64,000 bases of DNA, taken from Amoebophrya sp. A120 (Eukaryota; Protista; Dinoflagellata). The DNA lies in the NCBI GenBank assembly GCA_905178155.1, contig CAJINV010000020.1, forward strand, positions 806,001-870,000, written 5' to 3'. Made by a program: the position numbers and the translations under genes. The notes beneath the pieces are model-generated. The model saw only the letters and a program-made list of their open reading frames with translations, was not told the origin of the DNA and searched no databases. Below, in pieces: positions 38 through 63,675 of the stretch (positions are counted from its first letter, which is position 1; each line of letters begins with the position of its first letter).

Positions 38-3000
38 ATGAACCAAAATTTCAACAACTTCAACCACAATGGCAATTTCCACAAAAATTTCCGAATGTCC
101 ACCACCTCCTCCGATGCCGCGGAGCAGGTGCACCTGTTGCAACAGAAGCCGAACCAAAACCTTGACCCGCACAGCCCCCCGTTCGTCGCACACCAGCAGT
201 CTTTGCCCATGCGGCAATCGCAGCCGTTCCGCCCGCCCCAAGGCCTGCCCCGTGCGGCTGGTCCGCGGGAAAGTTTCGGCGTGCCGTGCGAACATAGTGG
301 ACCGAGCCTGGGCAGCGGTCATGTGGGGGGACCCGGCAAGCAGGGCGGGGTGAATCAATCGCCGGCTAATGCGGATTTGATGAGTCCGCAGTTGGAACTC
401 GGTATGCGTATGCAGCAGGAGCAGCAGCAGCAGCAAGGTAAAGGCTTCCTCAATGGAGGTGGAGGACCTGTTACTAAGTGGAACTTTCTAGGAATGAGGA
501 AATTTTGAAAAAATTGCCCCCCCTTCGAATTCTCTTCCGAAAGCAGCAGCTCTTCGTAGCTGTGTTTGGCTGGCGTGGCGCGCCAGCATTTGTTTGCTGT
601 ATTCGAAAATGGAAGCGGGAAGCGACTGTGTCAGAGTTCGGACGCATTGCCGCGCAGTGAAATCACCAAAGCAGGCAGGCGGCTTTTCGGGTGCCACTCA
701 CCTCGATCGCCAACTAGCCATCGCCGGAGGCTCAGCACACACCTACAAAGCCGCGCTTCATCTGAATAACGGCCGCGATCTCTACATGTGCATCGCAGTG
801 AGAGCACCGCGCTAAGGTGGCAGGTCTTTGAGGTCTCTGGGCCTACTCTACCGAACAGCAGCTCGCCGGCAATCGCCTAGTGGGGCTTCCAACCCAAGGC
901 GGCAGCCCTGGAAGGGGCCAATGGGGTCGGGCGCGTGGCCTGGCCGGCTCGAGGAGTTGCAGAAACATTTGAAAAGAATGGCGGAGGACTACCGCGGCGC
1001 CCTCAAGTGCCTCGGCCGGGTTTTGGCGGGGTGCCCCAACAAAGGTCGCGCCCGAGGGCTCAGCCCCGCTCTGCTTTTCTTGGTGTTTCTTGTATGCTTC
1101 AAATAGAGATCTGCGCTTTCCGCTCGTGATTCAATTTCCGAGGAAAATGGCGAAGGGGGGGGTCGCGGGGGGGCCGGAGGGGGCCTCGAGAGGGCCCCCA
1201 CTGAAGGGGGCAAAAATCGCCCCCGTGCCGTCGTGATTCAATTTCCGAGGAAAATGGCGAAGAGGGGGGGGGAAGGCAAGGGGGAGGGGCCGGGGGGCCC
1301 TGAGTTTTCCTCGGAAATTGAATCGCGACGGTATGGCACCGCTTTTTGCCTTGTTTCGAGGCGAATCTGGGAATTGGCCTGCTTTGCCGGCCTTCCCGGG
1401 CTCCCTTTTTTGGGTAGCGAGCGCGGCAACAAAACACGCCCAAAGCGAGGCCAAAACCATCACCATAGCACCGCGATTCAATTTCCGAGGAAAATTTCGA
1501 GTCCGGTGCGAAATGCCCTCAAGTTGGGAGCGGTAGGACCAAAGCCGCGGCAGGTTGGTTCACGGTGGGAAGCTGTCGACGGCGTGGGATATTTAGCGCG
1601 GTTCGGTAAGGGGGTATACCTGCCCCGGTTTAGCCGTTTTATTTGTAGCGCATGGCGTCCATGAGTAGGAAGGCCCATGGCGCTTGAGGTTTTGGCTCAA
1701 TGGCTTTGAGAATGATGCGGGTGTGTGGAGGCGCCACCATTCGGAGAGCAAGGCGCTGTCTTTTAGGTGCAGCCGCGATAAAGCCCATTATATGTGAGCC
1801 ACGGATGGCTCTCCAGGCTCGGCGACCACAGTTGTCCACGGGGCTCTGCGAGCTCGTCTCGCGCAGCGGTATTCGCAAATGGGCCGGCACAGGGCCGCGA
1901 CCTGATATCTCCACCTGCCTACTTTCACCTGGGGACTGAATTTTTTCGAATTTTCCTCATTCCTAGAAACTTCCACTTAGTACCTGTGAACAACCAGAAT
2001 CTCAACAACAATCAGAACCAAAATGCATCAAACCGCAACCCGAAGAACAACGTGCTGAACGCGCAGCAGTTCAACCACAACAATAACTTGCAGTTGAGCG
2101 TGATGCCGTCGCCGGATTACGGATTTTATGGGCAATTTGACGGCCCACCTGGAGGTTTGAACGCCAACTTCAACAATCTTCGCATGCCGATGAATCCACC
2201 ACAAATTATGCCCCGTCCGGGGATGGGGAACAACAGCCACAATTTCTACAACAATCCAGGAGGTGGAATCAATCAACAGCAAAACCACTTTTCTGCTTCG
2301 CAGTTCTACAATCAGCCGAACGATATGAACCAGATCGTGCAGGGTCAGCATCCGCACCAGAATACGACGAACAGTGGGGAAAATAAGCCCAAAAAGCCAC
2401 AGAACCCGTGGATCGGCGGAGACATGGCGGTTTTGTGGACGGACAAGCCCGAGAAGAAAAAGAAGCACTGGCAGGAGGGGTTTCTCCGAATGCAAAACTT
2501 CAACACGTTGGAGCTTTTCAACTCGCAATTGCGGTTTCTGGAGGAGTTTGTGTTCGACGACAAGCATATCACAGGAAAATAAAGTGCTATCGTTAACGGA
2601 ATTTGTGATGCAGCAATGCATCACTATCACTCCACTGAGCGTGCCAGGATTTGTCTTGCATAGCATGCATATTGGGCTACATTTGTGATGCATGACTGCA
2701 ATCTGTGAATAAAACCGTTAACGTTATTGATACTTTTTCTTCGTGATAAAGCAGAAGGAATTGTGGGACAACGACGAGGAGATTTTCTATGGGAAAAAGC
2801 ACGCCATCCAGGTCCTCCCGACGGACGAGTCCGGGGGGTATTGCAAGGCGTACTACTTTTTCCGTGACCGGATACCCAAATACAAAACTACAGATTTGGT
2901 CGGGAACGAATGCAACATGGACTACCACCCCTTGCATTTACCCTTCGAGAACACGTGCAAGGAGCTGAAAGCCAAGCGGGAAAAGGATCGCGACGTGTAC

Positions 3001-5762: not shown

Positions 5763-7945
5763 ATGGTCCGTTTGGGCAAGATCTATCCCATCAAAATTCC
5801 GAAGGAGGTGGCCATTCGGAATGGGAAGCTGTCCTTGTTCCAGCTTGGCGTGCAGGTTCTAGTCGTGTCCCTGTTGTTGTGGCAGTTCATCAAGGAACGA
5901 ATGTACTACGTGGTGCAGATTCCGCAGGGCTTTCCCAACGCATGGGTAGGCGGCTCGGGTAACGCGGATGCCTCTGCGGTGAGCGCGGACTACAGTTCGG
6001 ACATCTGCCGCGACAACCAGTCCTTTCTGTACAAGTACTCCGCGGGCTGGACCCACGGGGCCTACCAGTGCCTGCAGACCCCCAAAGCGGAGGCCGGGTT
6101 CAAGATCGGCAAGCGCGAGATCTACTTTCCCACCTACTTCCGTGAAACCATCGTGGAGACGGAATCTGGGAGCACCTGCAGCTCCGCGTCGTTTTGCACG
6201 AGCTCTGTCAGCTGCAGCCACAACAGTCTCTCGCAGGCGCCGTTATACAACTTCGGCCAGAAGTGCTTCGAGGATGCGACCGAAAACAATGTCCCGGCGT
6301 GGAACGGCCCAGCTGGCTCGCAGTCCCCGTCGCACGCTCACCAGAACGTCCGGAAGTGTTCGTGTAACCAACAGTCGCACTACCTCGTCGCGGGTGTATC
6401 GTCCAGGAAAATGACATTTGAGCACATCTTCAAGGTAAGTACAGAAATTGGAATGTTCATTTTACGTGGGCAAATGCGAACGAGATCATGCAGAAGCGCA
6501 AGCGTCTGTGATGCATGAGAAGCATGGACGCCAGCATTGCATTTTCATTACAGTGCTCCGCAAGAAATCAATGGAACAACGTGAACATCGAATGCTGCAA
6601 AAGCATATCAAAGTTACAGCACAGGCAGAGCAAAGCACCAAATAAAAACCTTCAGGTTACCGCCGCGGACACGGAGGTTTCTGGTTCCTCTGGAACCCCA
6701 AAAGCGGTTGCGGACGAGGATGAGAACAAACTGCCGGTGGTGTCCATTATCATGCGGAAAGACCAGGACGGTGCCTACTCCGAGTACGATTGCTCCTACA
6801 TACAGGTGGGCGGCAAGCCCGGGCAGTGCCGGTTTTCGGAGACCGCGGGCGTCCCGAACCCCCCTACCCTGACGCTGCAAGACTGGGTGGCGGCCGCCAG
6901 TAACGGGGACATCGACCTGCAAAACGCGGACGCACGCAACCCGTCCATCGCCAGCAACCAGGCGGGCTCGGGCTATGACGCGCGGGCCCCCTACCGGCTC
7001 ACGGGAGTGGAAGTAGTGGTATCGATCGAATACGTGGGGCCGGCCTTCCACAACCGCATTCCGGATGACGTGGACTTGTCCGGCTTCGGCAATCACATGG
7101 TCGCGCTCATCAAGGTCAGCGTGAATCAGGCGATGTGGACGGGGCTCCCGCACCTGGCGTACCAGAAGCCCACGACGTCGTACTTCGGCGACATCAGCAA
7201 CTTCAACAAGGGCAAGTTTCGCGAGCGCTACTACTACGGAATTCGGTTTCTGTTCACCACCTCCACTTCCTCCGCCTACGGGGCGTTTTCCTGGACCGAT
7301 TTCCTGACCGGTATGGCCGTGTTCAAGGTGTACTTCGGTGCCGCGGGGGCCATCGTGGTGCTGTTCGCTTTGACCGCACTCGGCCGGCTGTCCCTGCAGT
7401 ACAAGCGAGCGACGCTGACGCCCCTGGACCTCGAGTACGAGGCGACGCGGGTCGCCCCGGCGCGGATCCTGGTAGCGGTGTCGGCGTTCCACGGTATGTG
7501 CAAGATTCTGGAGGACGAAAGCCCCAAACTGCTACTCACGGACGAAAAGGGAAACCGGGTGATCCACGCGAAATCGGTGAACGCCGATGTGCTGAACAAG
7601 TGCTTTGGCAAGGTGTTTGGGTCGGGCAAGATCCAACTCGGCTCCGGGGGCATCGAGGCCTTGAGCGAGGCGGTGCTGGCCACGCTGGGCGACGAGCACA
7701 GTCTGGACGTCGAAAAGTTCGTCAACGCCTATCTTGCCTGCGATTGCTTGGACCTCACGGAGATGCAGCAGGTTTTCGACGAGGAAAGGCAAGTGGGCCG
7801 ACTGGAGCAGTTTTTCGCCTCGCCCCTGGAGCTCCCGTTCGCGTGCGAAAACCTGATGAACCGGAGGGGCAATAAGGAGATTGACGGGTCCAGCCAGGAA
7901 GCGTCGCCGCGACAGGCCGGCCAGATCCAGATGCAGCAGCCGTAA
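5763..7945 (+). CDS. P2X-receptor-like two-TM ion channel (~653 aa)
   Basis: N-terminal IPKEVAIRNGKLSLFQLGVQVLVV (TM1), Cys-rich ectodomain, YYYGIRFLF motif before TM2; exons 5763-6434 and 6656-7945. Confidence 0.75.
6435..6655 (+). other. Canonical GT-AG intron
   Basis: AAG|GTAAGT...AATAAAAACCTTCAG|GTT, in frame. Confidence 0.85.
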
Positions 7946-7996
7946 ATTGAATCGAGGCCCGCGGGGGCAACTGCTCAAAAAATGTTGATTTCCACG

Positions 7997-8017
7997 TCTC
8001 TCTCTCTCTCTCTCTCT
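7997..8017. repeat. (TC)n microsatellite downstream of the P2X-like gene
   Basis: About 10 TC units. Confidence 0.9.
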
Positions 8018-19700: not shown

Positions 19701-20888
19701 TGCGTCCCGCCGTATGGACGGGACTCGTGGCGCGCCTCGTGGCGGAACGAGGGCGTGTACGGGGCCATGTTGGAGCACGAGCGGAACCAGTGGTCCCAGG
19801 TCCCGGACGTGAAGGAGCGGAGTGCGAAGCGAAAGGACCACTTCGAGCAGAGACTGAAAAAAAAACTCTCCGCCGTAGACGGCATCAAACCGAGTGGCGA
19901 GAAGTACAAAAACGCCGAGAAAATCCGGAACATGCGAAAGGAAATCCAGCAGGAAGTTTTTTCCCCCGGACTAGCGACGCTACCCCGAGACGCTTTCTTG
20001 CAGCGGGGCGGGGGGGAGTTGAGTGTGGATCTGACGGCTTCTTCGCCGTTGAATCGTGCTGGTGACGGAACAAAGAGTACATACGTGATGGTGCCGAAGG
20101 GAGTTGTTGCTGGAGGAGGTAAAAACGTCGACAGCTCCGACCACCTGGTCCAGCCCATCCGGCGACTAGATCTTCCGAAACACTCGCCACGGGGGATCAT
20201 AAACAATGGCAAAAATGTACCTGCTGTTGCGTCGAACAAGAACAACAGCAAAACTCACCGCAAAACCAACACGAGTTCGACTTCAAACCGTGTTTCGAAT
20301 TGCGTTTACACGGTTGAAGACGTTTTGTATTTCCTGCAGAATTGCATCGTCAGCGACTGGCAAACCGGTGCGTCCCCGCGAAACCACTACAATGTGGATA
20401 AAGTAAAGGCGATCAATGTTGATGTTCCTGACCTGTCGGTGTCCTCGTCCTCTCCACCCGGTCCTACCACGACTACCCAGTTGCTGACGACCGACCAAGT
20501 GATTGATTTCAAGCGATTCCAGGCGAAGGTGGTGGAGAATTTGAAAAATCGGTTCGAAAAGGCGAAGTTCCTCGTGCAGAAAGTTCGGGACCCGTCGCTG
20601 CTCGCCCAGGACTTCACCGAAGCGAGAAAAAACGCGGAGTTTGTCAAGGAAAAAACCATGCCACCTATTCCAGTCACGCCGTCCATCGCACAACAAGTGG
20701 AAGCCTATGTGCGGGAGAACGGGGCCTTCATGGTACACCCGCTGCCGGGCAAGATGAAGCCGTCGCCGCGGGGACGGAGCAAGTCGCCGCAGCCGCGGTC
20801 ACCCCGGCACAAGCGGGAGCCGGCGTTGAAACTGCCGCACTTGAGCGGGAATGGCGGCACTGGAACCCACAATTGGTGGGCATTGTGA
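16743..20888 (+). CDS. Hypothetical protein (~1070 aa), 5 exons
   Basis: Exons 16743-17470, 17798-18090, 18366-18942, 19116-19320, 19476-20888 sum to 3216 nt in frame. Confidence 0.7.
17471..17792. mobile_element. Introner, family C (TATCAAAAGGAAAAATCCCCCCTCCCCATATCG)
   Basis: TIR ~37 nt; DR GCAAC/GCGAC; restores AAT-DLLF. Confidence 0.88.
18091..18360. mobile_element. Introner, family A (TATCAAATGTAAAAATGTCTGGGTCTGGA)
   Basis: Right end TCCAGACCCAGACATATTTGCAATCCATA; DR ACGGT/TCGGT; restores EAR-LLEI. Confidence 0.88.
18943..19110. mobile_element. Introner, family G
   Basis: TATCAC...TTGATA; DR AAGTG; restores EQK-W-IQ. Confidence 0.85.
19321..19475 (+). other. Canonical GT-AG intron
   Basis: GAA|GTAAGT...AAATAAACCCATCAG|ATC, phase 0. 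Confidence 0.85.
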
Positions 20889-49500: not shown

Positions 49501-52500
49501 AAGCGTTACCGCCACCGGTGACGTTCTTTCCTCGACGACCTTGGTGGCCGACGAGCACACCACGCGCACGGGGAGTACAACTGGAGTAACGGTGGGTAGT
49601 ACTATTATGGAGACGAAAGCAAGTGGTGCTGCTGGTTTTGCTCTTGGTCTTACTCTACTGTGAAGGTCATCGCTTGTTCTTGCATCAGGTTCGACAGTTT
49701 TGCTCTTTGCATCAGGAGTTCATGTACTTGTGTGTAGGTAGGTCGTGCTTGTTCCCCACCTACTTCAACCTCGCCTTCATAGTTGTAGTTTTCTGCGTGC
49801 TGTTGTGTGTCCTAGAGGGAGCAGCTTGCCCCGTGGTAATCATTTAACCTCAACATTAACATTGCATGTAAAAACAAGGAAAGAAATCACAAAGAAATAG
49901 ATGCGCATGACGTCGGAGTCGATCCGAGAGCGCAGCTACAAGAACCGCTTTTCGTGTGCATACCTACCGAGCCTGCTTCTTCCACGACCGGGCAGGACCA
50001 GACTGGCAATGCTGTCGGCACCGTTTCCACAACGACTGAGCGCCTCCCGTCATCCACCCGGTATCCTGTGCAAAAGTATCGTATTCGTATAAATGCAAGT
50101 CTTGCATTACAAATCTCTGTCCTAAGGCAAATCTGCATTACAAATTTCATTTGTCACGCTGAGGAAATTTGTAATGCATTTATACGAGTACGATACTTTT
50201 GCACAGGATACCCGGTTCGCGGAAACGACGGGCGGGCCGAGTTCTACACCGCCATGGACGGGCACGCCCGAAGTCACTGTACCCACAAAAAAAAACCCAT
50301 TCCCATGATCCAATTTGTCATGCGAAGCATGCATCAAAGCGTGTGTTTGTCATGCAAAAACTGGATGTGGTTGGCGTGGGTCTTTATTTCTGTGGATACA
50401 CCCTCGCCTCCAGCTATTCTATCCCGCCGGAAGAGTTGTCGACAACTGCAGGCACCTCCACCTCCACTTGGACCGGCGGGGCTACCACCAAGACACCGAC
50501 GACCGAACCGCTCACGCAAGAAAAGACGACCTGGGCGCCGACGTCCACGCCGGTGGCAGACACCGTAAGCGTGACCGTGTCGACCACGACGGCCTCGACT
50601 ACCGGGGCGGAGACGACCGGGGTAGACGGGTCCCCGACCAGCGGGTTCTCGACAAAGCCTGTGACTTTGTTGTCGACGCCTGATGGATATCGAGTGGAAA
50701 TAGAAATATGTCTGGGTCTGGAAAAGTTTTGCAGAAGCAAGTTTGTCATGCAGGTTTGCGTGGTCTGGAACGGCAACGGGACGACACAGATGCAGGATCC
50801 AGTATCACAGCTTCTGCAAGAGGAAGAGCTTTGCAATCCCTATAGTCCTGCATCAGAACAAGTCTGTTCCCAGTGTGGACAAAAATGGACGATAGCCATA
50901 GCCTGCTTAGCTCCTACAACCCACGTTCTAACTCACGGAGAGCATCGCAAGTTTGGGTTCCAGACCTCCCAGACGACCTATTTGCAATGCATACCGAAGA
51001 TGCCCCTGGGAGCAGCACCGCCACGCTGCCGTTTTACTCCACGACATGGATCGCGGAAGACACCACGGCGCCCAGCACAAGCTCGGCTGCGTCGGTGTCG
51101 GACACGAGTCCGCGCTCGTCGACGAGTGCGCGTTATGCATTGCAAAAGCATGAGACTTCTCACTAGTCGTATTATTTGCCTTCTACTTGCAAATTTTCCC
51201 CAGTTGAACTGAAGTTGTAATGCTGAATTGCCTAAAGACGAAGGCAGATTTGTCGTGCGAGATCGCAATAAGTAGAAGTTAGTACAGGGTGCGATGCTTT
51301 TGCAGAGGATACGTCGTCTGAGGAAACCACACTAGCCACAAGATCGTTCAGCACGACGCGCAGCACCACGACCACGGGACCGCTGCCGAGCAGTTTGTTT
51401 TCCACGCCGGCCGGCACGAGCGGCTTGCCCACAACCGCGAGTTTGGCGACCGCGGAGACGTCGACGAAGCCGACGACTCGACCCCCGCCCGCCACGTCGC
51501 CGAGCCGCACGTCGCTCTCCTCGACTACCAGCAGTACGCGGCCGGGCGAAACGACCTTCGCGTCGCCGTCCAGCGAATCCGGGACCACCCCGCTCGAAAA
51601 TACAACCCCATTTTCCAGCACCACCACAAAAACCGACTCGACCACGGGAGCTGCACCGTGGGCCACCACTCTTTTTCCGCCGCAAAGCACGGTGTGGTCC
51701 GTCTCTTCGACTGACCCCGGCGGAGATCCCTCCACGTCGACGAGACCCTCCACGCGCACGGTCGAATCCACAACCACGACCGGACCGCTATACTCGACGA
51801 CGAAGCCGGTGACCGCCGAGCCCCCGACCACGTTTGTGTCGACGGGGGGGAGCGAGGGCGGCTGGGGCGAGGGGCCGGAGCTGCAGAAGGGCGCGGGGCC
51901 GGTGATCATCACGAAGATGTTCCCCATTTCGACGACCCGCGGCACCACGACGACGAGTCCCACCACGCTCGCCGCGAAACCGGTGGAAAATATCCAAACG
52001 ACGCTCGTGTTTACCCCCGCTGCTTTGTCGACGGCGAGTCCATCCACCAGTTTGCTCACCACCGCGAGCACCTCGGTGGCCAGCGGGGGAACCACGGGGC
52101 CGGAGGCGAGTTCAGGGAACATTGAGAGGGCCTTGTCCTGGACGACGATGGAGCCGACGACGGGCTACGGTGCGGAGCAAGACTACAATCAAACCACCAC
52201 AAAGCTTTTTCCAATGTCAACGACGCGGACCGATTCGACCACGGGCGTCGCGACCGACGCGAAAGGGGACGGGGGAGGGGGCGTTTCGAGCACCACGGCC
52301 TTGCCGTGGACGCAGTCTTCAACTGGGGGTGGCGGTGGAGCCTCCACAGACGAGCTTTTACGGGGTGGTCATCTGGTGTGGGAACAATCGAGAATGGAAG
52401 ATGAAAAATATTTGTGCCGCAAACTGCGGATGTTGATCTGGCTAATAGTGATAGTCACCTGTCTGCTCAGCATGGCAAACCTAGAATCTGTTCAGCATGG

Positions 52501-55500
52501 CATAGCTATTCGCACCTGGAATCCGTACAAAATTTGTCATGCAATGGATAGCGGCTCTTGGTCTTGCTTTTGCGTTTGCCGGTTAGGTCGATACTTACAA
52601 AACTAACAGGAGGCCTTGGCGTTAGTACATTGTTGAGATTGTTCCACCAGCTGAGCAGGGCATAGGTTCCGACTTCGGTATTTTCTTCGACTACGACCGT
52701 CTCGGTTACGACGTCTGGCGCCGCCCCCACAACCGCAGAACTTCCACAGCTGACGTCTACAACCTGGGCGGATTCGAGTACCACGTCAAACGCGGAAACT
52801 GCGACGAGCTCGGTGAAAAGCAGTACAACCTGGACTGACAGCACCACGGCCTTGCAACTTACCGTGTCTTCTGCTGGTCTTGCGACCACAACCAGTTTGG
52901 CGATCACGAGCCCACCGGACTGGTACGAGAGTGCACAACGAGCTGCGGCTCCCGTTCAGAGTCAATTTGCATTTGTCACGCACAGTCGTGATCCCTGTGC
53001 GTGCCTGTCCCATATCCAAGCGATAGAAATAGAACTACAAAGCACTGTCTTGCATAGCAAGCTCAAGCTGCAGTGCATGCCCCACCCTGAAGGGCACTGC
53101 AATCTTCTGGCCGGGGATTTGTGATACAGCAGGCACTGTAGCTGTGCCGTTGCTTCTGATTCTGTTGCTGGTGCTAGGAAGTACTTATATGCAGTTCGAA
53201 TGAAGGAGATGGAAAACAAGCAGGAAAACCAGTTTCATCAGTTGTACCCTCTCATACCTGGTCCTCCGGCAGTCCTGACGCTACCGCGACAAAGATTTTC
53301 CCGGCCAGCACGACGAGATTTGCCACGACGACGGGGAACGCCGTGCTGGGGGACGGTTCTTCTCCGACCACCATTAGCCCGTTTTGGACCCCGCATGATC
53401 CGGGAGCATCTTCAACTACAGGCACTGGTGCGGACGAGATGTTCACAACGGGGATCTTTTCTTCGTCCACAAACGGCCCAGTACCGTCCACCACCGGGCC
53501 GGAATTTACGACGTCGCCGGCACCGGCTGGTAGTACGACTCAGAGCATGATCCCCGGAGATGAAACGCTCTCGGTTTCCGCGACCGTGGCACCGACGACG
53601 CGGACGGATTTGCCGGATGCGACGACGTCGCCGGCGGGCAGCAACACGGCGTCTTCTCCGTCGACAGACTGGACGGTAAAACCTACCGCAGCGTCAACTT
53701 TGACTGCAGCCTCAACTTTATATTCGACGAGGACAACCAAAACGGAGGTCACAACCGCACCGGGCACGACGCATTTCGATTCCGGTAGCAGTGTAATTCC
53801 AACAGTGAATCCGACACAGCCAACAACAGAGACCTTATCTAGCACCGTTTTGAGCACCAGCACAGAAGTCCGCACATCGTCCACGACTTCACCCGCGCCG
53901 CCGACGACCGAAGTGCAGACGGTGTCGAGCGTGTCGACCGCGGAGCCTGGGTTGTCCACAACGAATGAACCAGCTTCCACCACAATTTTGCTTTCCACGT
54001 TTACGACGCGCGAGCGGGAAACAACGACGCCAGCCGTGACGACAGATTTGCTTTCCTCGTCCCCAGGGGGGAGTGGCACGACCGGGCTTGTGTCCAGCGG
54101 GGCTACAACTTCCCCACCGGAAAGCCCCTCCACGACCATGTCATCGACTTCGAGTACGACTAAGGCGGGTAGCACAACTGCAGCCACCACCTTCACCGTT
54201 TCCCCCGAGGGGGCGGGGCCCACCGTGACGCCGGATGCTGGTGGGACTACTCCGCCGACCACGTGGAGCGTTTCCACGACCGTGTTTTCTTCCACGAAAA
54301 CGTTTTCCCCGGCGGAAACCACTTCAAAAACGCCTCGGACGACAAAGGCGCCGGTAGGGGGAGACTCGACCTCAGGCTCGTCCACCGCGTCGACGACGGC
54401 AGGAAAACCCACGACGCACAAATATGCAGCGCAAAAGTGTCGTAGCACTGCTTGGAGAAAAATTGGAATTTGAAGTGTCGTAGACGTAGCAGCATAAATT
54501 GCATTGGAGAAAAAATGGAATTTGATGTAATGCTTACTAAAAGAAAGAGGTAGTGCTAGTGCAGAGGCGAGTAGATCTCTCATGCAATACTGGTATACAG
54601 ATTTGCATTTGCATGAGTTCGAGCTCGAAAGTACGATACTTTTCCACTGCATAACAAGCCGGTGGAGACCACTACCGTGTCTCCCTTGACCACTTCCTCG
54701 GAGCCGACCTCCACATTGCCTTCCACAGCCAGCCCGAGGACGCCCGAAAGCAGTAGCCAGCCAAGCACCGAAACGGCGAAGACGACGGCGCACCCGTGGA
54801 CGACCACCACGAACGAAGTCACGACCACGGGCGTGACAGCGACCACAGGACCGGAATTTCTTTCCACGGTTACGTCATCCTATCAACTGCAAAAATGTCT
54901 GGGTCTGGAAACTTGTGATGCAAAAAGTGGATGATAGCCGGACTGCAATACGCAGCTATGCATCACAAATTTTCTGGCTGCCATGTCTTACGTATTCCGC
55001 ATGGCAAGCTGCGTTTTTGCATAACAGGTAAGAGGGTCGCTTCGTGCCTATGCAACACAGATTCTCGGATCATGCCAGACAAGCATGACAAACTTGCATT
55101 CTTCCAGACCCAGACATTTTTACATATGATGCATCCCGCACGGTGTCAACAAATTCGTCCACCACGTCCGATTTGCCAAGTACGACGAGAGAATTCGTTT
55201 CGTCCACCACTTTTAGCGCCACCACGTCGTCTCCTGCCGCGAGCAGCACAACTCCGGATTATAGTCACAGCAGCGCCACGGCAGTTTCCTCTACGGGTAG
55301 CACCACGCGGCCGGACTTCCTGGACACGACAATAGCGCCCCAGACGAGCACGACGCTGCCACGCGTCACGACGGGGCCCGATTTTCTGCAAACGACTCCG
55401 GAAAGCTCCAGTTCGACCACACCGAGCGTGACGACTACGCCCAAGGCAGAGGACTCGAAGACGAGTAAGGAACACAAATTTATTTTTGCCGTATACGTCG

Positions 55501-58500
55501 TACAAGTTGCATGGAAAATTTGATCGACCGGAGGACTGAAGCTTTTCATGCTGAGTGTTGTGATGTTGTGGTGGTCGGGCACTATCTAAAGGTTGTGTCA
55601 TGCATTCATCTTGTTGGCGTGTACGGAGTGCATTTCGTGTGGATAACGACTGGGGCGACCCCTGCGTCAACAACCTACACGCCGATACACTCAACCTCGT
55701 CGCCCGCGCCGAGTACAGGAACGGGCCCGGGTATGGCGAGTAGAAAAAAGTTCGTCGTCGTCACAAATGACACGCAGCTTCGTTTTGCTTTTGCATGAGA
55801 TGGAGATTGACAATTTTTTTTGCATTGCAGCCAAAATGAACTAGACAGACCGAAAAGTCCGGATCAGATCATGTGACTGTGATGCATTCGCTCGGTGCAT
55901 GATAAGATGACTGTGTTGCAAGTTGTAGACTGCCGATGGGAGGTGATCGCGACGAAGTTTTTTTGTTTGATATCTTGCTCGGGGGAAGAGAATCACAACA
56001 GCACGACGATGAGGTCGACGACATCTTCGGTGGAGACGATTCCGACGACAGTAATATCCACCACTACAGTGTTCTCGTCTACTTTCCTTTCGTCCAGCAC
56101 GAGATCTACTACGAGCAGTTCGGATCCTTTCGCCAACCAGACACCGAACTCGACGCGGGTGCCGGCAACGAAAACCGACGCAACCACGAGGTACTCCAGC
56201 ACCACTTTACCGCTAAAAGACGATACGACCGCGCCCTTCAGATCGAGCATGTTCACAACACCGCCCCCGCCGGTGACGGTCACGCTAACGCCGAACTCGA
56301 CGAGCTTGCCCTCGACAAAAGCGCCTGAAACGACGCAATTCTCGAGCACAAGGGATCCATCGGTAGAAACGACCGCGCCTTTCAGGTCGAGCCCTAGCAC
56401 GACGCCAGGGGGAGCTACAGTAACGCACCAAACGCCAAATTCGACCAGTTTACCGTCGACAAAACCGCCCCTAACCACGAAGTACGCGAGTACGACGGTG
56501 CCGGTGGAGGGAACTTATGCAATGCAAAAGCATCGTACTAGTATAAATCGCAATACAAATTTTATCAGGAGGAAAAATGGTGTTTGTAATGCTGATTTGG
56601 CTAAGAAACAAGATTTGTCATGGATAAATGCAACTGCTACGAGTGCGATACTTTTGCACTGGATAGAACTACAGCGCCTTTCCGATCGAGCACGGGCACG
56701 TTCTCGTCGAGCCAATCACAAACTATCACGCTGACGCCCAATTCGACGAGCTTGCCGTCGACAAAACTTCCGGTGACGACAAAACATTCGAGCACCAGCA
56801 CGGGAAGTAGTCCCACAGACGACCACTCGACTGCCAGATCGAGCACTAGCACGTCCACGACGACGTCGTTGAGTGTTACACTGACGCCGAATTCGACAAC
56901 GATAGGCACAACGCATATTTTTACGACTGGAAATACGACCACGACGACCACAACGTGTATGACAAGGGAAGCAAGTAGTCGGATGAAACTCAAAGTCAAA
57001 CAACTTTTCCTTTTTGTGACTTCCCTATGCTTCTTGGGGGAGAAACTATGACTATTTTGATTGCGGGTGCTGGTTTTGCGCCTCCTGCATATGCGCATGA
57101 GAGAGCAGATACGACGAGTGCTGCCAGATTATAGTTCGATCAATCGCTGTGCTGGCCTCACGCTTTCGATAGCATTGTCATCTGTACGTAGAAGGAGCAA
57201 GTGCGCGATCAGTGAATTTGCAGCTGCGTCTGTTCCGGAGGCGCAATAGACTCTGCCTGCCCGTGTTTTAGTTTTACGGGCAGTTGTTAGTTGTGTTTGT
57301 CATTGAGTTGACATCTCATTTGCTTTGCATACCCCCGACCACGACCACGACGACGACATCGACTACAACCACGACATCGTCGACGACCTCCACCGTTACT
57401 GCGGAAATCACTAGCACCAGTACAACTTCTGCCAGTGGCACTAGTACTTCAAGTGGTACGACAACAGCATCAGCAACGGCTTCCACCAGCAGTACAACAA
57501 CTTCTAGTACCTCAACGTCAACGTCTTCTTCTTCGGAAGAAATCGGGGGGAGCAGTACGCCGCACAAAACCAGCAGTAGTACCGCGACAGTGTCGACATC
57601 ATCAACTACAGGGACCGGAACGGGGACGGAGAGTAGCACTGCGAGTAGCACAACCACAACTGGTACAACTAGCTCGACGACTTCATCTAGTAGTACCACA
57701 ACCACAACCGTTACAACTAGCTCGACGACTTCATCTAGTACTAGCACGACTACAACTGTTACAACTAGCTCGACGACTTCATCTAGGAGCACCACAACCA
57801 CAACCGTTACAACTAGCTCGACGACTTCATCTAGTAGTAGCACGACCACAACTGTTACAACTAGCGCTACGTCAACTAGTACCGAGCCGGAATTTCTGTC
57901 GACGACAACGACCACCAAGCCGGAATTTCTGTCTACGAGCACAACAGAGACGGCGTCAACCACAACCACCTACACCTCAGCTGCTACTTCATCCACCACG
58001 ACCACCGGCGGCACGCCGGTTGCTATATTAGAGACCACTACGTCAACAGAAACTCACACTGGCGCTGTGACAACTTCAACTGTTTCCTCTTCTACAATCA
58101 CTGAGACCACGCCGTCGGAGCAGGAGACCACTAGTAGCACTTTGTCGAGCACAAGCTCAAGCACAGCTTCGAGTACAACTAGCACTTCTTCGTCTTCAAG
58201 AACATCGTCGTCGACAAGCACGACATCTCGTACCACAACGGAAACGGAAAGTACAACAACCGGAACCGCTTCGCCGACTTCTAGTTCTAGTGGTGCGCAG
58301 ACCTCGGCGTCGACTTCTTCTGCAACTTCGACAAAAAGGGAAACCACCACGGCGACGGGTACTACGACAACGGAAACCACCACGACCTCGAGCAGTTCAA
58401 CTGCGACGGAAACGGTGACTGACAGTACCACAACAGAAGCAGAGAAAACCACCACGGGCACTGGTACTACGACAACGGAAACCACCACGACCTCGAGCAG

Positions 58501-61500
58501 TTCAACTGCGACGGAAACGGTGACTGACAGTACCACAACAGAAGCAGATAAAACCACCACGGGCACTGGTACGATAACGAGTAGCACTAGCAGTACTACA
58601 TCACCAACATCTGCACCAGTTTCATCCAGTTTGTCAAGTTCTAGTAGTGCACTATCGACTTCGACGAGCTCGGAAACTGCTACAGCCAGCGAGACGGAAA
58701 CTGTGAGCAGTAGAAGCAGCTCTACTACGACATCTTCAACGTCGACGGAGCAAGTGTCTACAACTACATCCACAAAGGCGTTGCCTGAGACAAGTCTGCC
58801 CAGCACTCCCAGCACCCCGCAGACCCATACTTGGAGTGGCGTCGAGACCAGCACGGTGACTAGCACTACAAGCTCGAGCACCGGCACGGCTTCAACGAGC
58901 ACAGGCACTACCTTGCCGCCATTTCCCACCATGCCTACCAGGCCAAGCACTCCCAGCACCCCGCAGACGCATACTTGGAGCGGCGTCGAGACGGTGACTA
59001 GCACAAGTTCCAGCACGACCGAGACCACGGCGACAACTTCTACAAGAACTTCAACTACATCCACACCAGCTGCTACTTCTACCACGACCACAGGCGGCAC
59101 GCCGGTTGCTATCTTGGAAAGCACTACAACAACTTCGGGCACAAGCACCGCGGTCCCCGTAATAACCATACCCGTTATACCGACTCTCCCCAGCACTCAC
59201 AGCACCCCGCAGACGCATACTTGGAGCGGCGTCGAGACTTCTACGGCGACTAGCAGCACAGAGACCTCCACCTCAGTTGCTACTTCTACCACGACAGGCG
59301 GCACGCCGGTTGCTATACTAGAAAGCACTAGTACGACAACGGCGGGCACGAGCACCGCGGTCCCCGTGATAACCATACCCGTCATCCCGACTCTCCCAAG
59401 CACGCACAGCACTCCGCAGACGCACACTTGGAGCGGGGTCGAGACGGTGACTAGCACTACAAGTTCGAGCACAGAACCGGCTTCAACAAGCACAGGCACT
59501 ACCTTGCCGCCGTTTCCCACCCTGCCTACTAGGCCAAGCACTGGCACCACCCCGCACACGCACACGTGGAGCGGCGTCGAGACGGTGACTAGCACGGAGA
59601 GTGCTTCAACAAGCACAGACACTACCTTTCCTCCGTTTCCCACGATGCCTACCAGGCCGAGCACTCACAGCACCCCGCAGTCGCATACTTGGAGCGAGGC
59701 CGAGACAGTGACCAGCACAAGAAGCTCGAGCGCACCGACAACCAGCACGACCACGAGCGAGGCGAAAACGAGCCGCGAGCTGTTGGAATCCAGTTTGCGG
59801 CCGACGACGTCAATGTTTGTGACGACAACGGGCTCGGCGCTGCCCTTTGTTGGTACGTCGACGACCACTACGGAAAAAGCGGTGCTTCCCGGCGGGCAGA
59901 CGACCAGCACGGAGGAGCCCTGGTCTTGGAGCAGTAGCACAACTTCTAGCACATCTAGTGGGGAGGAATCAACATCGACTTCGAGCACGAAAAGCAGGAC
60001 CGGGACCACGACTGGCACAGGTACCGCTCCCGACACGGGTCCGCCTGGGCAAACTTCGCTGTCTAGTAGAAGTGCCACTACGTCGTCTACTAGTAGTTCT
60101 AGTACATCGAGTTCTACCACAGAAAAAGGCGTGCTTCCCGGCGGGCAGACAACGGCCACGACCGGCCCCTGGTCCTCGCCGGGCAGCAGTACAACTACGA
60201 CCGAAAGTGGCGATGTTGTTGAGTCGTCTTCAACTAAAACCGGAACAAGGCCAAGTGGTGGCCTCGGAACATCCTCGCTACCTCCTACTCCCTCATCGAC
60301 AAGGACAACGTCCACGTCAACAACTGAAAAAGGCGTGCTTTCGGGAGGGCAGACAACTGAAACTACAGCGCCGTGGTCGTGGAGCAGCACGACGACCTCC
60401 GAAAGTGGCGGCGTGGTTCAGTCATCAAGTACGAGTGCTGGAACTACGAGTGGTGGCCCCGAGCAGAGGACCACGACGTCGCTACCACCTCCTGCTTCTT
60501 CCACATCCACAGTATCAACAGCCTCAACTACTGAAAAGGGCGTGCTTATGGATCTGTCAGGATCGAAATCGTCAAAGTTGAAATGATTTGTCATGCATAA
60601 AATGCAGCCCACAAAGTGTCTGTCTTGCAGAGTAGGCAAGTGAGGCAGATTGTAAGCCTGTCGAGGGGTAGAAACTGAGGCGCTAAAGTAGCACGACAAA
60701 AGGCGTCTTCCTTACCCAAACAGCATGACAAACTGGATATCGGTTCTACCCAAATTTGCCATGCGCCACTTAGAAACTGGATTTCAAGTGGCATCCATTT
60801 TATGCATGACAAACTATTTCAACTTTGACGATTTCAAACCTGACGCTTCCATAGTGCTTTCCGGAGGGCGGACAACGGCGACGACAGAGCCGTGGTTGTG
60901 GAGCAGCACGACTATGACAGTGCACAACTCCCCCTCCCCCTCCTTTGTAATGCAAAATCCCAAATCCAGTTGCAGTTGGTGCCTTGTGGCACTGTTTGCA
61001 TTACAAATTCCGGAAGCCCAAACAGTAGTACAATAAATGTAATGCAAAATCCCAAATCCAGTTGGATTGGTGCCTTGTGGCACTGTTTGCATTACAAATT
61101 CCGGAAGCCCAAACAGTTACAGTACTACAATCGGGACGTGGGGTTGTCATGCACAGGCCCCACGTTTGTTCGTTGGTGGTTGTGATGGTGCTACTCATGC
61201 AATACAAATGAGGGGGAGGGGGAGTTGTGCACTCTGATAACGACGACCAGCACCGCAGTAGTAGCGGGGTCTTCCTCGACGACCACGGAAAAAGGTGGTG
61301 GTGGCGGTGCTCCTACTTCTACTACCCCCAGTAGCACCGCAACAACCCGGCCCCGGCCCGTAACAACGACGCAGACGGGAGGGGGAATTATTATACCGGA
61401 AACCGGGCTGCCAACGACGTCGAGACGGCCATTTACTTCGCGCCCGAGGCCGCAGACAGGTTCGAGCACGACGAAGCCACTGTTGTTTCCTATCATCAGT

Positions 61501-63675
61501 ACTAGTGCCAGCAGTACTAGCACCTCCACGACGGTAGAAGGAGACAGCACAAGGTTCGTCCCGATCATCGCGACGGTCAGCCCATTCACTCCGGTGTTCC
61601 CGCCGGAGTCGCCGGGAACCACCACGGCAACATCCACATCTGTACAAGGTGGAACTACGACGACCAAGAATCCGACTACGCAAGGGGAAAAGAGAAAGGC
61701 AAGATCGAGAACAAAGTGGGACGCGCAGTCGCAGAGCGATAGAAGATGCTGCGTTTGTATGTTCAAATTTACTTCTTTAGTTTCTCCCAAATGGCATTGC
61801 ATTCGCCGCTGCCGTTGAACAGAAGGGCGTGGACGACGTCGCTTCTAGTAGTAGTAAATGATTAAACGAACTTGCTGAAGTTTGTGACTGTGGACCCGTT
61901 CATCTCTATCTTTTCGATTTCTTTCCCTTCCATAACCAATGGAGAAGAGGAGGCGCCTAGTAAAACAACGGCTGCACCTCAACAGCAAATTATAGATATC
62001 CCACAGAAAAAGACCGACAGGTCATATTTGTAATGCAAAAATAAATACACAGGAAAATCTGTCATGGGCGAGGCCATAACATCCTGTTTAGGGCATGCAA
62101 TACAGATTTTTTTGTCTATTTATTTTGGCATTACAAATATGACCTGTCGGTCTTTTTCTGGGGGATAATAGAACTCCCCCCCGCCTTGCAAGTCGAACCC
62201 GTGCGCTACCCTGTGCAAAAGTATCGTACTCGTATAAATGCAAATACTGCATTACAAATCTTGTTCCCAAGGCAAATCTGCATTACAAATTTCATTTCTC
62301 ATGCTGAGGAAATTTGTCATGCGATTTATACTAGTACGAGGATGCTTTTGCATTTCATATGCGCGGTCCGTCGACGATGCGCGGATCCGCGCAGGCTTTG
62401 TGGGCCAAACCGCAGAAGCGAAAGGACGGCAAGAAGCAGTTTCTGTACCACTTTCCGTCACATTGGTACCTGCAATGGACCGGGGTTCACCAGATTGTGG
62501 TGTTCTCCCGCCCACTGTCGGATTCCTTCTGGTGCACCTTCTGGGGCGCGAACTTGTTTTGCGTGTTGCTGCTGTTGCTGATTTCGTGTGTGGTCTACGC
62601 CTCGGGGCAGGGCTTGTATTGCTGTTTTCGCAGGGCGGGATTGTTAGACGAGACTGGCAGTTATAGTACTAGCAGGAGTGGCAGCCATAGAAGTGCTACC
62701 AGGAGCAGAAGAAACAGTGGAGGTGCTGGATTCATCATGAACGGAACATCAAATGGGAACGGCGCAACAGGAGGTGGAGCAACAGCTTCCGGACTGGCCG
62801 CCGCAGGACATTTTAGCAACGGCTTCGTCTACTACACGGATAGAAATAATTCCTCTCGCGATTATGAGAACACCACCAGTCCGGTAGACGACAGCGACTC
62901 CTCCCCGTCTTCACACCGGTTGGCCGGGCGTGCCGTGTCGACCCCGCTTTCTCGGAGTAACAGTAACTCGCTGTACAGCAACAGAACGCCGGGTGGAGAG
63001 GGATCAGTTTACAGTGAGGAAGATTTGGAGGACTGGAGTATCAGCGACGAATTTTCATCCTCAAATAGCTCGTCAACATCTTTGGCGATTGCGTCCGGGG
63101 AAGAGGAGGACCTGGTTTTCGAGAAAGGGGAATTTGAATTAGAGACGGATCAACTTCTTTCTGGAAAAAATGGAGGAACGTCTTGGAGCAGCAGCGGTGC
63201 CGCAAGTAGTAGCAGTTCTAGTAGCGGGGAAGAAAATGAGTATGGCCATCATCTATTTCGGCAAAGACAGGACGCGGAAGCGGAACTCGATCTGAAGTTT
63301 CGTCACGCTGCTGGTGTTCGTCCTGCTGCTCCACCGTTGGCAGCAACATTCCGATCTCCCGGAAGAATATCAGCGCCACATAGCAACAACACAGGCAATA
63401 GCAATACTACAGCTACAGGTCGGAAAACTACTGGCAATATGATGTTTCCTAATCCACTAGACCCGGAGTTCTCACCGATACGGCGAACTTACCACTTCTA
63501 CGACGACAAGGACAACATCGAGGAAAATCAAAATGATGAAAACGGTATGGAGGAGGAGAAATTCTACCTGCTTCAGACACGCGGGCGAGGAAGAATAAAA
63601 AAGGAAAACAGGTCTGATGGCGCTGCAATTTCACCAAATCAAAGACAACACGATGGTGATCGTTTGACTCAATGA
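37541..63675 (+). CDS. Giant type I membrane adhesin/mucin-like protein (~5150 aa): signal peptide, acidic region, PAN/apple-like domain, TSP1-like Cys/Trp repeats, Thr/Ser mucin stalk, TM helix, acidic tail
   Basis: Removing 38 TIR elements (each plus 5 nt) and one GT-AG intron leaves 15465 nt in one frame. CRFLCEVLPECTMYSY...CWIK; WGEWSECRCS, LSEWVPVKDCSVSC; TM FCVLLLLLISCVVYA near 62560. Confidence 0.75.
38158..38299. mobile_element. Introner, family B (TAT....TGCAAAAGTATCGTACTCGTA)
   Basis: DR GACCA; restores DED-Q-FE. Confidence 0.85.
38633..38900. mobile_element. Introner, family D (TATGG...CTC)
   Basis: TATGGAGCTCTCGAGCG / CGCTTGAGAACCCCATA; DR AGATA; restores PEI-DAP. Confidence 0.82.
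38953..39219. mobile_element. Introner, family A
   Basis: DR GTGCG/GTGCA; in-frame join to EELL. Confidence 0.85.
40346..40553. mobile_element. Introner
   Basis: TATCCAAGAAAAAAAC / GTTTTTTTCTTGGATA; DR CCGAC/CAGAC; restores VPR-HGP. Confidence 0.87.
41253..41576. mobile_element. Introner, family F (TGTCAGGATCGAAATCG)
   Basis: DR AACAC; restores AAN-T-GQG. Confidence 0.88.
41830..42096. mobile_element. Introner, family A
   Basis: DR CGGGG; restores THG-G-REC. Confidence 0.88.
42218..42904. mobile_element. Introner, family D, hosting a nested element
   Basis: ~43-nt TIR TATGGAGTTCTCAAACGTTACATTCTCAACTGTTACATGAAT; DR ACTGC; restores RDC-KGH. Confidence 0.92.
42261..42706. mobile_element. Nested TIR element inside introner 42218-42904
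   Basis: TATGGCGGCGTCAACAATCTCACCACTATA / TATAGTGGTGAGATTGTTGACGCCGCCATA (perfect 30 nt); DR GAATT. Confidence 0.93.
42966..43211. mobile_element. Introner
   Basis: TATCGCAGGAACAAAAGTGTTACAG / CTGTAACACTTTTTTCTTGGGATA; DR AATTG; restores HN-C-GKN. Confidence 0.88.
43263..43583. mobile_element. Introner, family C
   Basis: DR CGCGC; restores QTR-HGTG. Confidence 0.88.
43758..44068. mobile_element. Introner, family C, opposite orientation to 43263-43583
   Basis: DR GGAGT; restores QRE-W-RK. Confidence 0.9.
44139..44451. mobile_element. Introner, diverged family A-like
   Basis: TCGATCTGGGT / ACCCAGATCGA arms; DR CAGAG; restores GTE-LATC. Confidence 0.8.
44510..44771. mobile_element. Introner, family A
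   Basis: DR TGCGA; restores DC-E-GHW. Confidence 0.92.
44830..45323. mobile_element. Introner, family E, with internal insertion
   Basis: TATCCTGAGTAAAAACGT / ACGTTTTTACTCAGGATA; DR CTGCG/CTGAG; restores KVC-G-RET. Confidence 0.9.
45086..45283. mobile_element. 198-bp insert flanked by a 17-bp duplication (GCATTACAACTCTGGCG)
   Basis: Duplication at 45069-45085 and 45284-45300; absent from sister copy 46824-47102. Confidence 0.75.
45446..45603. mobile_element. Introner, family B
   Basis: DR CTGTC; ends ATG; restores HC-P-VDC. Confidence 0.88.
45762..45913. mobile_element. Introner, family B
   Basis: DR CCACA; restores TH-S-CEH. Confidence 0.9.
46214..46380. mobile_element. Introner, family B (diverged)
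   Basis: DR CATTG; ends ATG; restores TH-C-GVQ. Confidence 0.83.
46433..46752. mobile_element. Introner related to family F
   Basis: TATGAAAGCCTCAG / CTGAGGCTTTCATA; DR GGACG; restores ED-G-GRVC. Confidence 0.9.
46824..47102. mobile_element. Introner, family E
   Basis: DR CTGCG; restores PAC-E-DPG. Confidence 0.92.
47256..47519. mobile_element. Introner, family D
   Basis: TATGGG...ATTCTCAAACGTTA / TAACGTTTGAGAATCCCATA; flanks GTTCT/GAGTT; in frame. Confidence 0.8.
48042..48387 (+). other. Canonical GT-AG intron, the only clear one in the giant gene
   Basis: CCG|GTATTG...ATTTCAG|GAA, phase 0. Confidence 0.75.
48763..49046. mobile_element. Introner, family A
   Basis: DR TTGAA; restores GIE-DVS. 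Confidence 0.85.
49603..49962. mobile_element. Degenerate introner
   Basis: TATGGAGACGAAAGC / GCTTTTCGTGTGCATA; flanks AGTAC/CCTAC; in frame; left border may be 3 nt later. Confidence 0.55.
50062..50210. mobile_element. Introner, family B
   Basis: Near-perfect 36-nt TIR; DR CCCGG; restores STR-FAE. Confidence 0.93.
50280..50398. mobile_element. Short degenerate introner
   Basis: TACCCACAAAA / TTTCTGTGGATA; flanks CACTG/CACCC; in frame. Confidence 0.65.
50688..50993. mobile_element. Introner, family A (diverged)
   Basis: TGTCTGGGTCTGGAA arm; flanks ATGGA/CCGAA; in frame. Confidence 0.75.
51134..51311. mobile_element. Introner, family B (diverged)
   Basis: TATGCATTGCAAAAGCAT / ATGCTTTTGCAGAGGATA; flanks CGCGT/CGTCG; in frame. 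Confidence 0.78.
52359..52664. mobile_element. Degenerate introner (a GT-AG reading is also possible)
   Basis: Arms CTGGTG..GAACAATC / GATTGTTCCACCAG; flanks GCTTT/GGTTC; in frame. Confidence 0.5.
52924..53256. mobile_element. Introner, family H (TA.GA.AGTGCACAAC)
   Basis: TACGAGAGTGCACAAC / GTTGTACCCTCTCATA; DR ACTGG/CCTGG; restores PDW-SSG. Confidence 0.75.
54423..54653. mobile_element. Introner, family B
   Basis: DR ACAAA/ACAAG; restores THK-PVE. Confidence 0.83.
54881..55131. mobile_element. Introner, family A, inverted copy of 33491-33741
   Basis: DR CATCC; same 251-bp length; restores TSS-RTV. Confidence 0.92.
55466..55645. mobile_element. Degenerate introner
   Basis: DR ACGAG/ACGAC; arms CCGTATACGTC..ACAAG / CTTGTTGGCGTGTACGG; in frame. 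Confidence 0.65.
55732..55978. mobile_element. Degenerate introner
   Basis: AAAAAAGTTCGTCG / CGACGAAGTTTTTT; DR CCGGG/TCGGG; right border may be 6 nt earlier. Confidence 0.65.
56516..56665. mobile_element. Introner, family B
   Basis: DR GAACT; restores EGT-TAPFRS, matching neighbouring TTAPFRSS repeats. Confidence 0.9.
56958..57331. mobile_element. Degenerate introner
   Basis: TATG...GATGAAACTCAA / TTGAGTTGACATC...GCATA; flanks ACGTG/CCCCC; in frame. Confidence 0.55.
57663..59720 (+). repeat. Coding tandem repeats of the mucin stalk
   Basis: About four 60-nt units (ACAACTAGCTCGACGACTTCATCTAG) at 57663-57865; a 96-nt duplication near 58340-58570; six PSTxxTPxxHTWSxxET units at 58800-59720. 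Confidence 0.85.
60547..60853. mobile_element. Introner, family F
   Basis: DR GTGCT; restores EKGV-L-SGG. Confidence 0.9.
60913..61239. mobile_element. Introner, family H, with internal ~80-bp duplication
   Basis: ~37-nt TIR AGTGCACAACTCCCCCTCCCCCTC; DR ACGAC. Confidence 0.92.
61677..61934. mobile_element. Degenerate introner
   Basis: TACGCAAGGGGAAAAGA / TCTTTCCCTTCCATA; flanks CCGAC/ACCAA; in frame. Confidence 0.6.
61997..62167. mobile_element. Introner that is almost entirely a hairpin
   Basis: ~66-nt TIR in a 171-bp element; DR ATAGA; restores II-E-LPP. Confidence 0.93.
62207..62359. mobile_element. Introner, family B
   Basis: DR TGCGC; restores PVR-GPST. Confidence 0.9.

Follow-up and report, generated by a model that had tools for sequence, protein, structure and literature searches.

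A 64,000-nucleotide (nt) stretch of the genome of Amoebophrya sp. A120 (contig CAJINV010000020.1, 806,001-870,000; the window, to which all counts given here refer) contains 46 top-level introner elements interrupting the exons of five genes, and in every case the element has to leave together with five further nucleotides if the reading frame is to be restored. These are the introner elements published for A120 by Farhat et al. (2021; PMC7789003), and the class itself was thus already known in this strain. Removal of the element plus 5 nt survives decay of the flanking direct repeat, tolerates either orientation of the element and involves termini without GT-AG. We put at about even the chance that the elements are removed from the pre-mRNA by a modified spliceosome whose two cuts are both set by the paired ends of the element, 1 nt before its 5' TA and 4 nt after its 3' TA (the 1+4 register). 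Removal at the RNA level is fairly well supported, by the published RNA-seq for the class and by deposited proteins, and the 1+4 register can likewise be deduced fairly well from the junctions themselves.

The window contains no N, is gene-dense, and has all of its modelled genes on the + strand; the products of two of these are 100% identical to deposited proteins named Amoebophrya sp. A120 (P0001 and P0121). The five host genes carry 2, 3, 1, 2 and 38 elements, which range in size from 119 to 1511 nt (median 264, n=46). In an automatic scan 26 end pairs combined a perfect 5-nt repeat with a terminal inverted repeat (TIR) score of at least 18, against 0-3 in each of ten Markov shuffles. Irregular copies were added by walking the reading frames, their ends being placed by hand from the TA and the TIR pairing. 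The ends were corrected by hand at 44139 and 50280 (off by one; elements are named by their left coordinate, Table 1) and at 52359 (re-placed after a first placement broke the frame), so that for these three the frame test is in part circular. Scanning with the end profile gave scattered unpaired matches outside the catalogue.

All 46 elements start with TA, and they end with TA (43/46) or TG (3/46). In the end logos (n=46) both ends fit TATS-N6-AAAA, with TAT at 39 of the left and 42 of the right ends and A predominating at positions 10-13 (31-41 of 46 at each). At the left ends the TA is invariant and the third base varies in 7/46; at the right ends the mirrored third base varies in 1/46 and the last base in 3/46, always from A to G, which would pair as G.U in RNA. 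The 5-nt direct repeat matches at all five positions in 28 elements, at four in 8 and at three or fewer in 10. The initial annotation of this DNA had described about 46 elements in five genes, with TIRs, 5-nt direct repeats and one nested copy. The number, the hosts and the TA-ended TIRs were as it said, but the repeat is perfect only in the 28 copies just mentioned and the nesting goes two levels deep. TIRs, a target duplication of fixed length and the lack of a Pfam match in the open reading frames (ORFs) scanned are features of miniature inverted-repeat transposable elements (MITEs) or other non-autonomous TIR transposons. The insertion sites show no palindromic target preference, and the intron phases are distributed 12/20/14.

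Any single element left in place truncates its ORF (46/46), the initial annotation having said that most would bring stops or frameshifts. Gene 10 gives an ORF of 5,157 aa when element plus 5 nt is removed, against 1,156 aa at +2, 1,068 aa at +8 and fewer than 250 aa at the other lengths; a symmetric removal of element plus 2 nt was tried and fails. For gene 1 the corresponding figures are 596 aa at +5 and 126-159 aa at out-of-frame removals, the frame test defining the removal length only modulo 3 in such small genes. The in-silico +5 products agree letter for letter with the deposited A120 proteins (P0001, 288/288; P0121, 1071/1071), a comparison that covers 4 elements and gives indirect support, since deposited models are not reads. 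An alignment of the SMP-30 protein with 119 homologues shows no gap at the junction left by element 29965, and the Glu at this point is kept in 100 of them. The proposal that removal of element plus 5 nt restores the frame even within conserved domains is thus borne out, and the rule also holds where the repeat has decayed (the 10 copies with at most 3/5 matches). The lack of consistent GT-AG ends noted initially proves to be complete, with neither GT-AG nor GC-AG found at any placement within the direct repeat in the 46 elements.

Where the cut falls can be read only at the 18 imperfect repeats, as a perfect repeat hides it. At 44830 any cut that keeps 3 nt or less of the left repeat copy creates a TGA, and because of this junction gene 10 stays open only at 1+4 or 0+5 when a register is applied uniformly, the other four stopping at 1,203 aa. 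For the conserved Glu to be encoded at 29965, 3 nt or more of the left copy must stay. At the 56958 junction a 1+4 cut encodes Ser and a 0+5 cut Trp. When the 18 imperfect repeats were scored by local composition, 1+4 came first, leading 0+5 by 2.8-8.3 log units and the remaining registers by 8-15; 5/18 sites are silent and 5/18 clearly favour another register. The intron is therefore likely to be N-TA...TA-NNNN, with 0+5 as the less likely alternative. With such a cut the invariant TA would lie at +2/+3, like that in the GTA start of all six GT-AG introns modelled in the window; the introns would start with GT (16), CT (11), TT (10) or AT (9) and close with 15 kinds of 3' dinucleotide among the 46 elements, with AT-AC ends in a single element (45762). 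In strain A25 the predominant sites listed all start with TT and the inverted repeat starts with TTA (Farhat et al. 2021, PMC7789003), which would place TA at +2/+3 again. The published A120 dinucleotide tables (Farhat Table S4; Gozashti fam3) were considered as support for an N-T start and dropped. In fam3 (PMC12130899) the 5' ends are GT in 26% and AT in 17%, the 3' ends AG in 26% and AC in 20%, and since the excess is thus mirrored at the 3' end, which points to an aligner preference inside perfect repeats, such tables are not counted here.

The evidence supports a removal signal located in the paired ends. Orientation with respect to transcription is opposite in 11 and the same in 8 of 19 clear family pairs, and therefore no strand-specific internal signal is required. 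A terminal stem of at least 8 bp is present in the minimum-free-energy structure of 44 of the 45 elements folded, with a folding z of -3.95 for 44830. The first exon nucleotide after the element is a purine in 24/46, which gives no purine rule. The sense strand folds lower than the antisense in 33/45, a bias that strand-biased mutation could cause.

Clustering by blastn of 48 elements (46 top-level and 2 nested) yielded 6 multi-member families and 21-25 singletons, rather than the at least eight TIR families first proposed; of the ordinary GT-AG introns reported beside them, six were modelled. Nesting at 42218-42904 > 42261-42706 > 42294-42673 has a perfect repeat for each element. The nested 61-nt hairpin element (42261-42711) was inserted directly before one copy, in its host, of the shared motif described below, and its own loop was later struck. 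By eye, 44830 carries an extra ~215 nt (45050-45300) compared with its relative 46824, flanked by a 17-nt direct repeat.

Families that are otherwise unrelated have in common an internal motif, TGTVATGC. It was selected by eye and post hoc. The 13.3 kb of elements contain 96 copies of this motif (39/46 have it), whereas 200 shuffles of the elements yielded 2.7 on average and never more than 10; the GT-AG introns (1.3 kb) contain one copy, and there is none in 32.7 kb of exons or in 16.8 kb of other DNA. A 10-mer form was observed 54 times, with 0.6 expected, and the wider consensus is RRATTTGTVATGC. Same-orientation copies are 31-32 nt apart in 12 of 37 spacings, and the first inward copy lies 32-48 nt from the element end in 30/58. 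In old elements the motif decays (0.7 versus 2.6 copies per element) and the frame rule still holds; the motif therefore likely serves transposition and not removal, and it is likely to be the site of one mobilising protein. The elements are likely to be non-autonomous DNA transposons that leave a 5-nt target duplication, and one might speculate that a single DDE-type transposase binding RRATTTGTVATGC moves all of the families. The parts of Farhat et al. (2021, PMC7789003) consulted report that no cognate autonomous element or transposase was found in A120.

In the mechanism that we favour, a transposon would insert into an exon and leave its 5-nt target duplication, and the paired ends would then define both cut sites in the transcript. 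Rather tentatively, we suggest that the chemistry would be spliceosomal, with U+2/A+3 read as in GTA donors and the hairpin taking the place of U1 and of 3' AG recognition. There is RNA-seq support for the non-canonical introns and a near-complete set of spliceosomal proteins, and U1 snRNA was undetected in both A25 and A120 (Farhat et al. 2021, PMC7789003). GT-AG introns make up 35-40% in the strains where U1 was undetected (PMC7789003). The strain with GT-AG introns, ex K. veneficum, has U1. Adaptation of a spliceosome to MITE introns has a precedent in Fritillaria (PMC13326754; PMC11282704). The TA at +2/+3 and the undetected U1 snRNA point to a changed spliceosome. The structure-guided pathway beside the spliceosome that was envisaged initially is retained in part: both orientations, random-looking 3' dinucleotides and no G.G/A.C bias put the signal in the paired ends, but its separateness from the spliceosome is called into question by the same TA and the same undetected U1.

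A number of observations weigh against this mechanism or its register. The predicted stem would bury the transcript from +2 onward, and at 1+4 the first and last bases form all 16 kinds of pair, G.G and A.C together being observed 6 times against 6.9 expected; a G.G or A.C terminal pair is reported as needed for spliceosomal catalysis. The A-rich tract that precedes the canonical 3' ends of the window is matched by nothing in the elements, as judged by eye. For element 29965 no terminal stem is predicted, and it folds no better than shuffles (z -0.84), yet it is absent from the deposited protein, and therefore structure alone is not the whole signal. In the TIRs G.U does not outnumber A.C (62 versus 47, p=0.18), a comparison that fails to show selection on the stem at the RNA level. 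A single stop codon, penalised arbitrarily, supplies about 7 log units of the register score, and by composition 38953, 52359 and 61677 clearly prefer 0+5, and 51134 and 52924 prefer 0-2 nt kept on the left. Gene 10 has no deposited model or homologue among the results of two queries that both included a low-complexity exon, one spanning only 679-2000 aa and the second giving 0 matches. Finally, the RNA runs X5-X7 covered no exon between 29001 and 49000 and yielded no junction-spanning read. They held only element ends joined to the flanks of other loci (e.g. ~355 reads at one X7 locus), and some copies therefore persist in the X5 and X7 libraries; these reads would come either from abundant transcripts that retain a copy or from amplified DNA. 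At 40448, 44507, 44830 and 46433 X5 and X7 show tens to hundreds of RNA reads, from a few other loci, with an element end still joined to the flank it has there.

The most serious alternative, which we regard as a genuine possibility though clearly short of an even chance, is that a separate structure-specific endonuclease and an RNA ligase act beside the spliceosome with the same 1+4 geometry, as proposed for the nonconventional introns of euglenids. Orientation independence, symmetry and the buried donor would all suit such a pair of enzymes, as would the lack of terminal-pair bias, the 15 different 3' dinucleotides among 46 and the terminal stems in 44/45; in Euglena, moreover, the code tested sets the cuts at fixed distances from a paired motif, the 3' spacer being the longer one (N3 versus N5-6), and the introns leave as circles. 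On the other hand, the invariant TA falls on donor positions +2/+3, U1 snRNA was undetected though 35-40% of introns remain GT-AG, 29965 with its decayed stem is still missing from the deposited protein, and no candidate enzyme is known. Stated in full, this alternative would give A120 its own spliceosome-independent remover, arisen independently of the euglenozoans, that ignores terminal nucleotides, accepts either orientation and measures 1 + 4 nt from the paired TA end, with the insertions of one transposase system (RRATTTGTVATGC, 31-32 nt spacing) being harmless in exons; this broader idea we likewise consider possible but doubtful.

It seems improbable that there is no single register, with cuts sliding in or near the repeat or an ordinary spliceosome using nearby GT/AG. 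The legend of Fig. 3 in Farhat et al. (PMC7789003) does call the sites variable relative to the hairpin, some frame-preserving GT..AG lies within ~20 nt in 34/46 elements, and at five sites the composition score is higher for a register different from 1+4. However, such a GT..AG is absent in 12/46, the deposited proteins match +5 exactly at 4/4 elements checked, and the published variability is to be expected from aligner choice inside perfect repeats.

Excision from DNA rather than RNA, be it precise, programmed or stage-specific, is more improbable still. The elements look like DNA transposons, with symmetric TIRs and a phased internal motif that would suit a DNA-binding protein, and TA ends are also seen in the internal eliminated sequences of ciliates. 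Nevertheless, contigs of run X1 (29001-33519, 38168-38998 and 47073-49000) cross elements and exons without a gap or another letter at a depth of ~40-45, although this run may be the assembly's own source, contigs drop rare variants and DNA joints are swamped by repeats; X1 has far more contigs at element ends, which are repeated in the genome, than at exons. The frame rule also outlasts the decaying motif, and the favoured 1+4 register is strand-asymmetric, as expected for RNA. Least probable of all is that the genes are dead and that the published junctions arose by template switching of reverse transcriptase, for which a hairpin with a short repeat is the classic setting, or that ribosomes hop over the inserts: X5 and X7 do hold element ends joined to other flanks, but the 5,157-codon frame is intact, as is the conserved SMP-30 protein (90% identity with that of A25), and the in-frame codon inside the repeat changes its amino acid in 10/18 imperfect repeats, once to a stop, which rules out take-off/landing bypass and leaves little homology for template switching.

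The top-level copies all lie within coding exons, the opposite of the usual transposon distribution, and the 16.8 kb of intergenic or unmodelled DNA has no catalogued element and no internal motif. With 38/46 elements (~2.5 per kb of coding sequence, versus 0.5 elsewhere) gene 10 may be an insertion hotspot. Its predicted protein has, in order, a hydrophobic N-terminus, an acidic and then a Cys-rich region, a long Thr/Ser-rich stalk and a hydrophobic stretch near the C-terminus, and is possibly a surface adhesin; Pfam searches of 10 pieces gave only a sub-threshold PAN_4, and its repeats may be thrombospondin-like. In the longest element no Pfam match was obtained for the 2 ORFs scanned of 23 listed, and between 1120 and 1500 a unit of ~25-30 nt recurs in both orientations with G-rich spacers. 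The gene at 5763-7946, free of elements and with one GT-AG intron, encodes a 653-aa membrane-type protein that may be P2X-like, but its first exon gave no Pfam match. Inspection by eye shows a TAAA(AA)C-like tract less than ~15 nt from the AG in four of the six GT-AG introns and a polypyrimidine tract in none, which suggests a branch site near the 3' end of the local GT-AG introns.

Table 1. Host genes, introner elements and ordinary introns in the window (direct repeat, matching positions of five).
Feature	Coordinates	Strand	Direct repeat	Gene	Remarks
Gene 1	95..3230	+			Asn/Gln-rich protein; 2 elements; 3' end provisional
Gene 5	16743..20888	+			1071 aa once 3 elements+5 nt and one GT-AG intron are taken out; identical to P0121
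SMP-30/gluconolactonase-family gene	29036..30304	+			288 aa; 1 element, one GT-AG intron; identical to P0001
Gene 9	32035..36146	+			1131 aa after removal; 2 elements, one GT-AG intron
Gene 10	37541..63675	+			predicted 5,157 aa; 38 elements, one GT-AG intron
Longest element	472..1982	+	5/5	1	TAC..GTA ends; no exact internal motif
Element	2567..2748	+	5/5	1	
Element	17471..17792	+	4/5	5	
Element	18091..18360	+	4/5	5	
Element	18943..19110	+	5/5	5	
Decayed element	29965..30178	+	2/5	SMP-30	within conserved G-E-V motif; informative junction
Element	33491..33741	+	5/5	9	family of 54881, opposite orientation
Element	33791..34052	+	5/5	9	
Element	38158..38299	+	5/5	10	
Element	38633..38900	+	5/5	10	
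Element	38953..39219	+	4/5	10	
Element	40346..40553	+	4/5	10	
Element	41253..41576	+	5/5	10	
Element	41830..42096	+	5/5	10	
Element	42218..42904	+	5/5	10	hosts two nested levels
Nested element	42261..42706	+	5/5		61-nt near-perfect hairpin after removal of own insert
Second-level nested element	42294..42673	+	5/5		
Element	42966..43211	+	5/5	10	
Element	43263..43583	+	5/5	10	family of 43758, opposite orientation
Element	43758..44068	+	5/5	10	
Element	44139..44451	+	5/5	10	
Element	44510..44771	+	5/5	10	
Element	44830..45323	+	4/5	10	key junction for register
Element	45446..45603	+	5/5	10	TG end
Element	45762..45913	+	5/5	10	opposite orientation to 50062 and 62207
Element	46214..46380	+	5/5	10	TG end
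Element	46433..46752	+	5/5	10	
Element	46824..47102	+	5/5	10	family of 44830
Element	47256..47519	+	2/5	10	
Element	48763..49046	+	5/5	10	
Element	49606..49962	+	3/5	10	
Element	50062..50210	+	5/5	10	
Element	50280..50398	+	3/5	10	
Element	50688..50993	+	2/5	10	
Element	51134..51311	+	2/5	10	
Decayed element	52359..52664	+	3/5	10	ends hand-placed
Element	52924..53256	+	4/5	10	
Element	54423..54653	+	4/5	10	
Element	54881..55131	+	5/5	10	TG end
Element	55466..55645	+	4/5	10	TAA start
Element	55732..55972	+	2/5	10	informative junction
Element	56516..56665	+	5/5	10	
Element	56958..57331	+	1/5	10	informative junction
Element	60547..60853	+	5/5	10	
Element	60913..61239	+	5/5	10	internal duplication
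Element	61677..61934	+	2/5	10	
Element	61997..62167	+	5/5	10	
Element	62207..62359	+	5/5	10	
GT-AG intron	6435..6655	+			gene without elements
GT-AG intron	12908..13064	+			gene without elements
GT-AG intron	19321..19475	+		5	
GT-AG intron	29679..29861	+		SMP-30	
GT-AG intron	34172..34364	+		9	
GT-AG intron	48042..48387	+		10	

How Amoebophrya removes tens of thousands of introns that lack GT-AG has been an open question since 2021. Either of the two leading mechanisms would be noteworthy, the one a spliceosome freed of both terminal nucleotides, the other a second, non-spliceosomal nuclear pathway. A fixed 1+4 register, if true, would turn a "variable" boundary into a rule that can be checked at a few named junctions and would correct gene models in the A120 genome, and the shared motif could serve as bait for the mobilising protein.

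With respect to known systems, the conserved terminal pair of canonical U2 and U12 introns is lacking here (GT-AG or GC-AG in 0/46 at any register, and one AT-AC at 1+4). The introns of Fritillaria borealis (PMC13326754; Henriet 2019 via PMC11282704) are similarly MITE-derived, with TIRs and target-site duplications (TSDs), and are removed by an adapted U2 spliceosome; they prefer AG-AC/AG-AT ends, however, with isosteric terminal pairs in 45-55%, whereas the window elements have no terminal preference. The nonconventional introns of euglenids and diplonemids (PMC12501133, PMC11282704, PMC12621601) are also MITE-like, with paired ends and direct repeats, coexist with GT-AG introns, and have fixed spacers from paired motif to cut that are longer on the 3' side. 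Nevertheless, the euglenid signature N3-CDG ... CH'G-N5-6 with a purine exon start differs from that of the window, N-TAT ... ATA-N4 without a purine rule, and the lineage, for whose introns circles are reported, is unrelated.

The closest relatives are those described from A120 itself. The families of Gozashti et al. (2025, PMC12130899) include TIR-type introners, at tens per gene and with mostly non-canonical ends, but comprise mixed classes of transposable elements with automatic TSD calls of 2-6 nt (32/58 A120 rows), whereas the window points to one 5-nt, TA-ended system. As the initial annotation had stated, introners of this kind were already reported in Amoebophrya, by Farhat et al. (2021, PMC7789003), for whom the excision machinery was unresolved; their elements come from the same strain, are of similar size and have RNA-seq-supported removal. 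The window elements also agree with the motif given there, an inverted repeat of 8-20 nt beginning TAT, followed by ~7 variable nt and then at least three A, and with the direct repeat of 3-5 nt at the boundaries, repeated in the genome. The text of that paper, as far as it was covered and leaving aside figures 3 and S19-S25, which may show part of this, has no passage on orientation, subterminal motifs, ATGC, excision or nesting, and neither a +5 removal that outlasts decay of the repeat, with its favoured 1+4 cut, nor family members in both orientations, nor the shared TGTVATGC was found in the open-access literature searched. While Farhat et al. call the repeats and sites variable and detect no relationship between singleton elements, the duplication in the window is uniformly 5 nt long, the register favoured is 1+4, elements face either way and can be nested, and a single internal motif is common to them.

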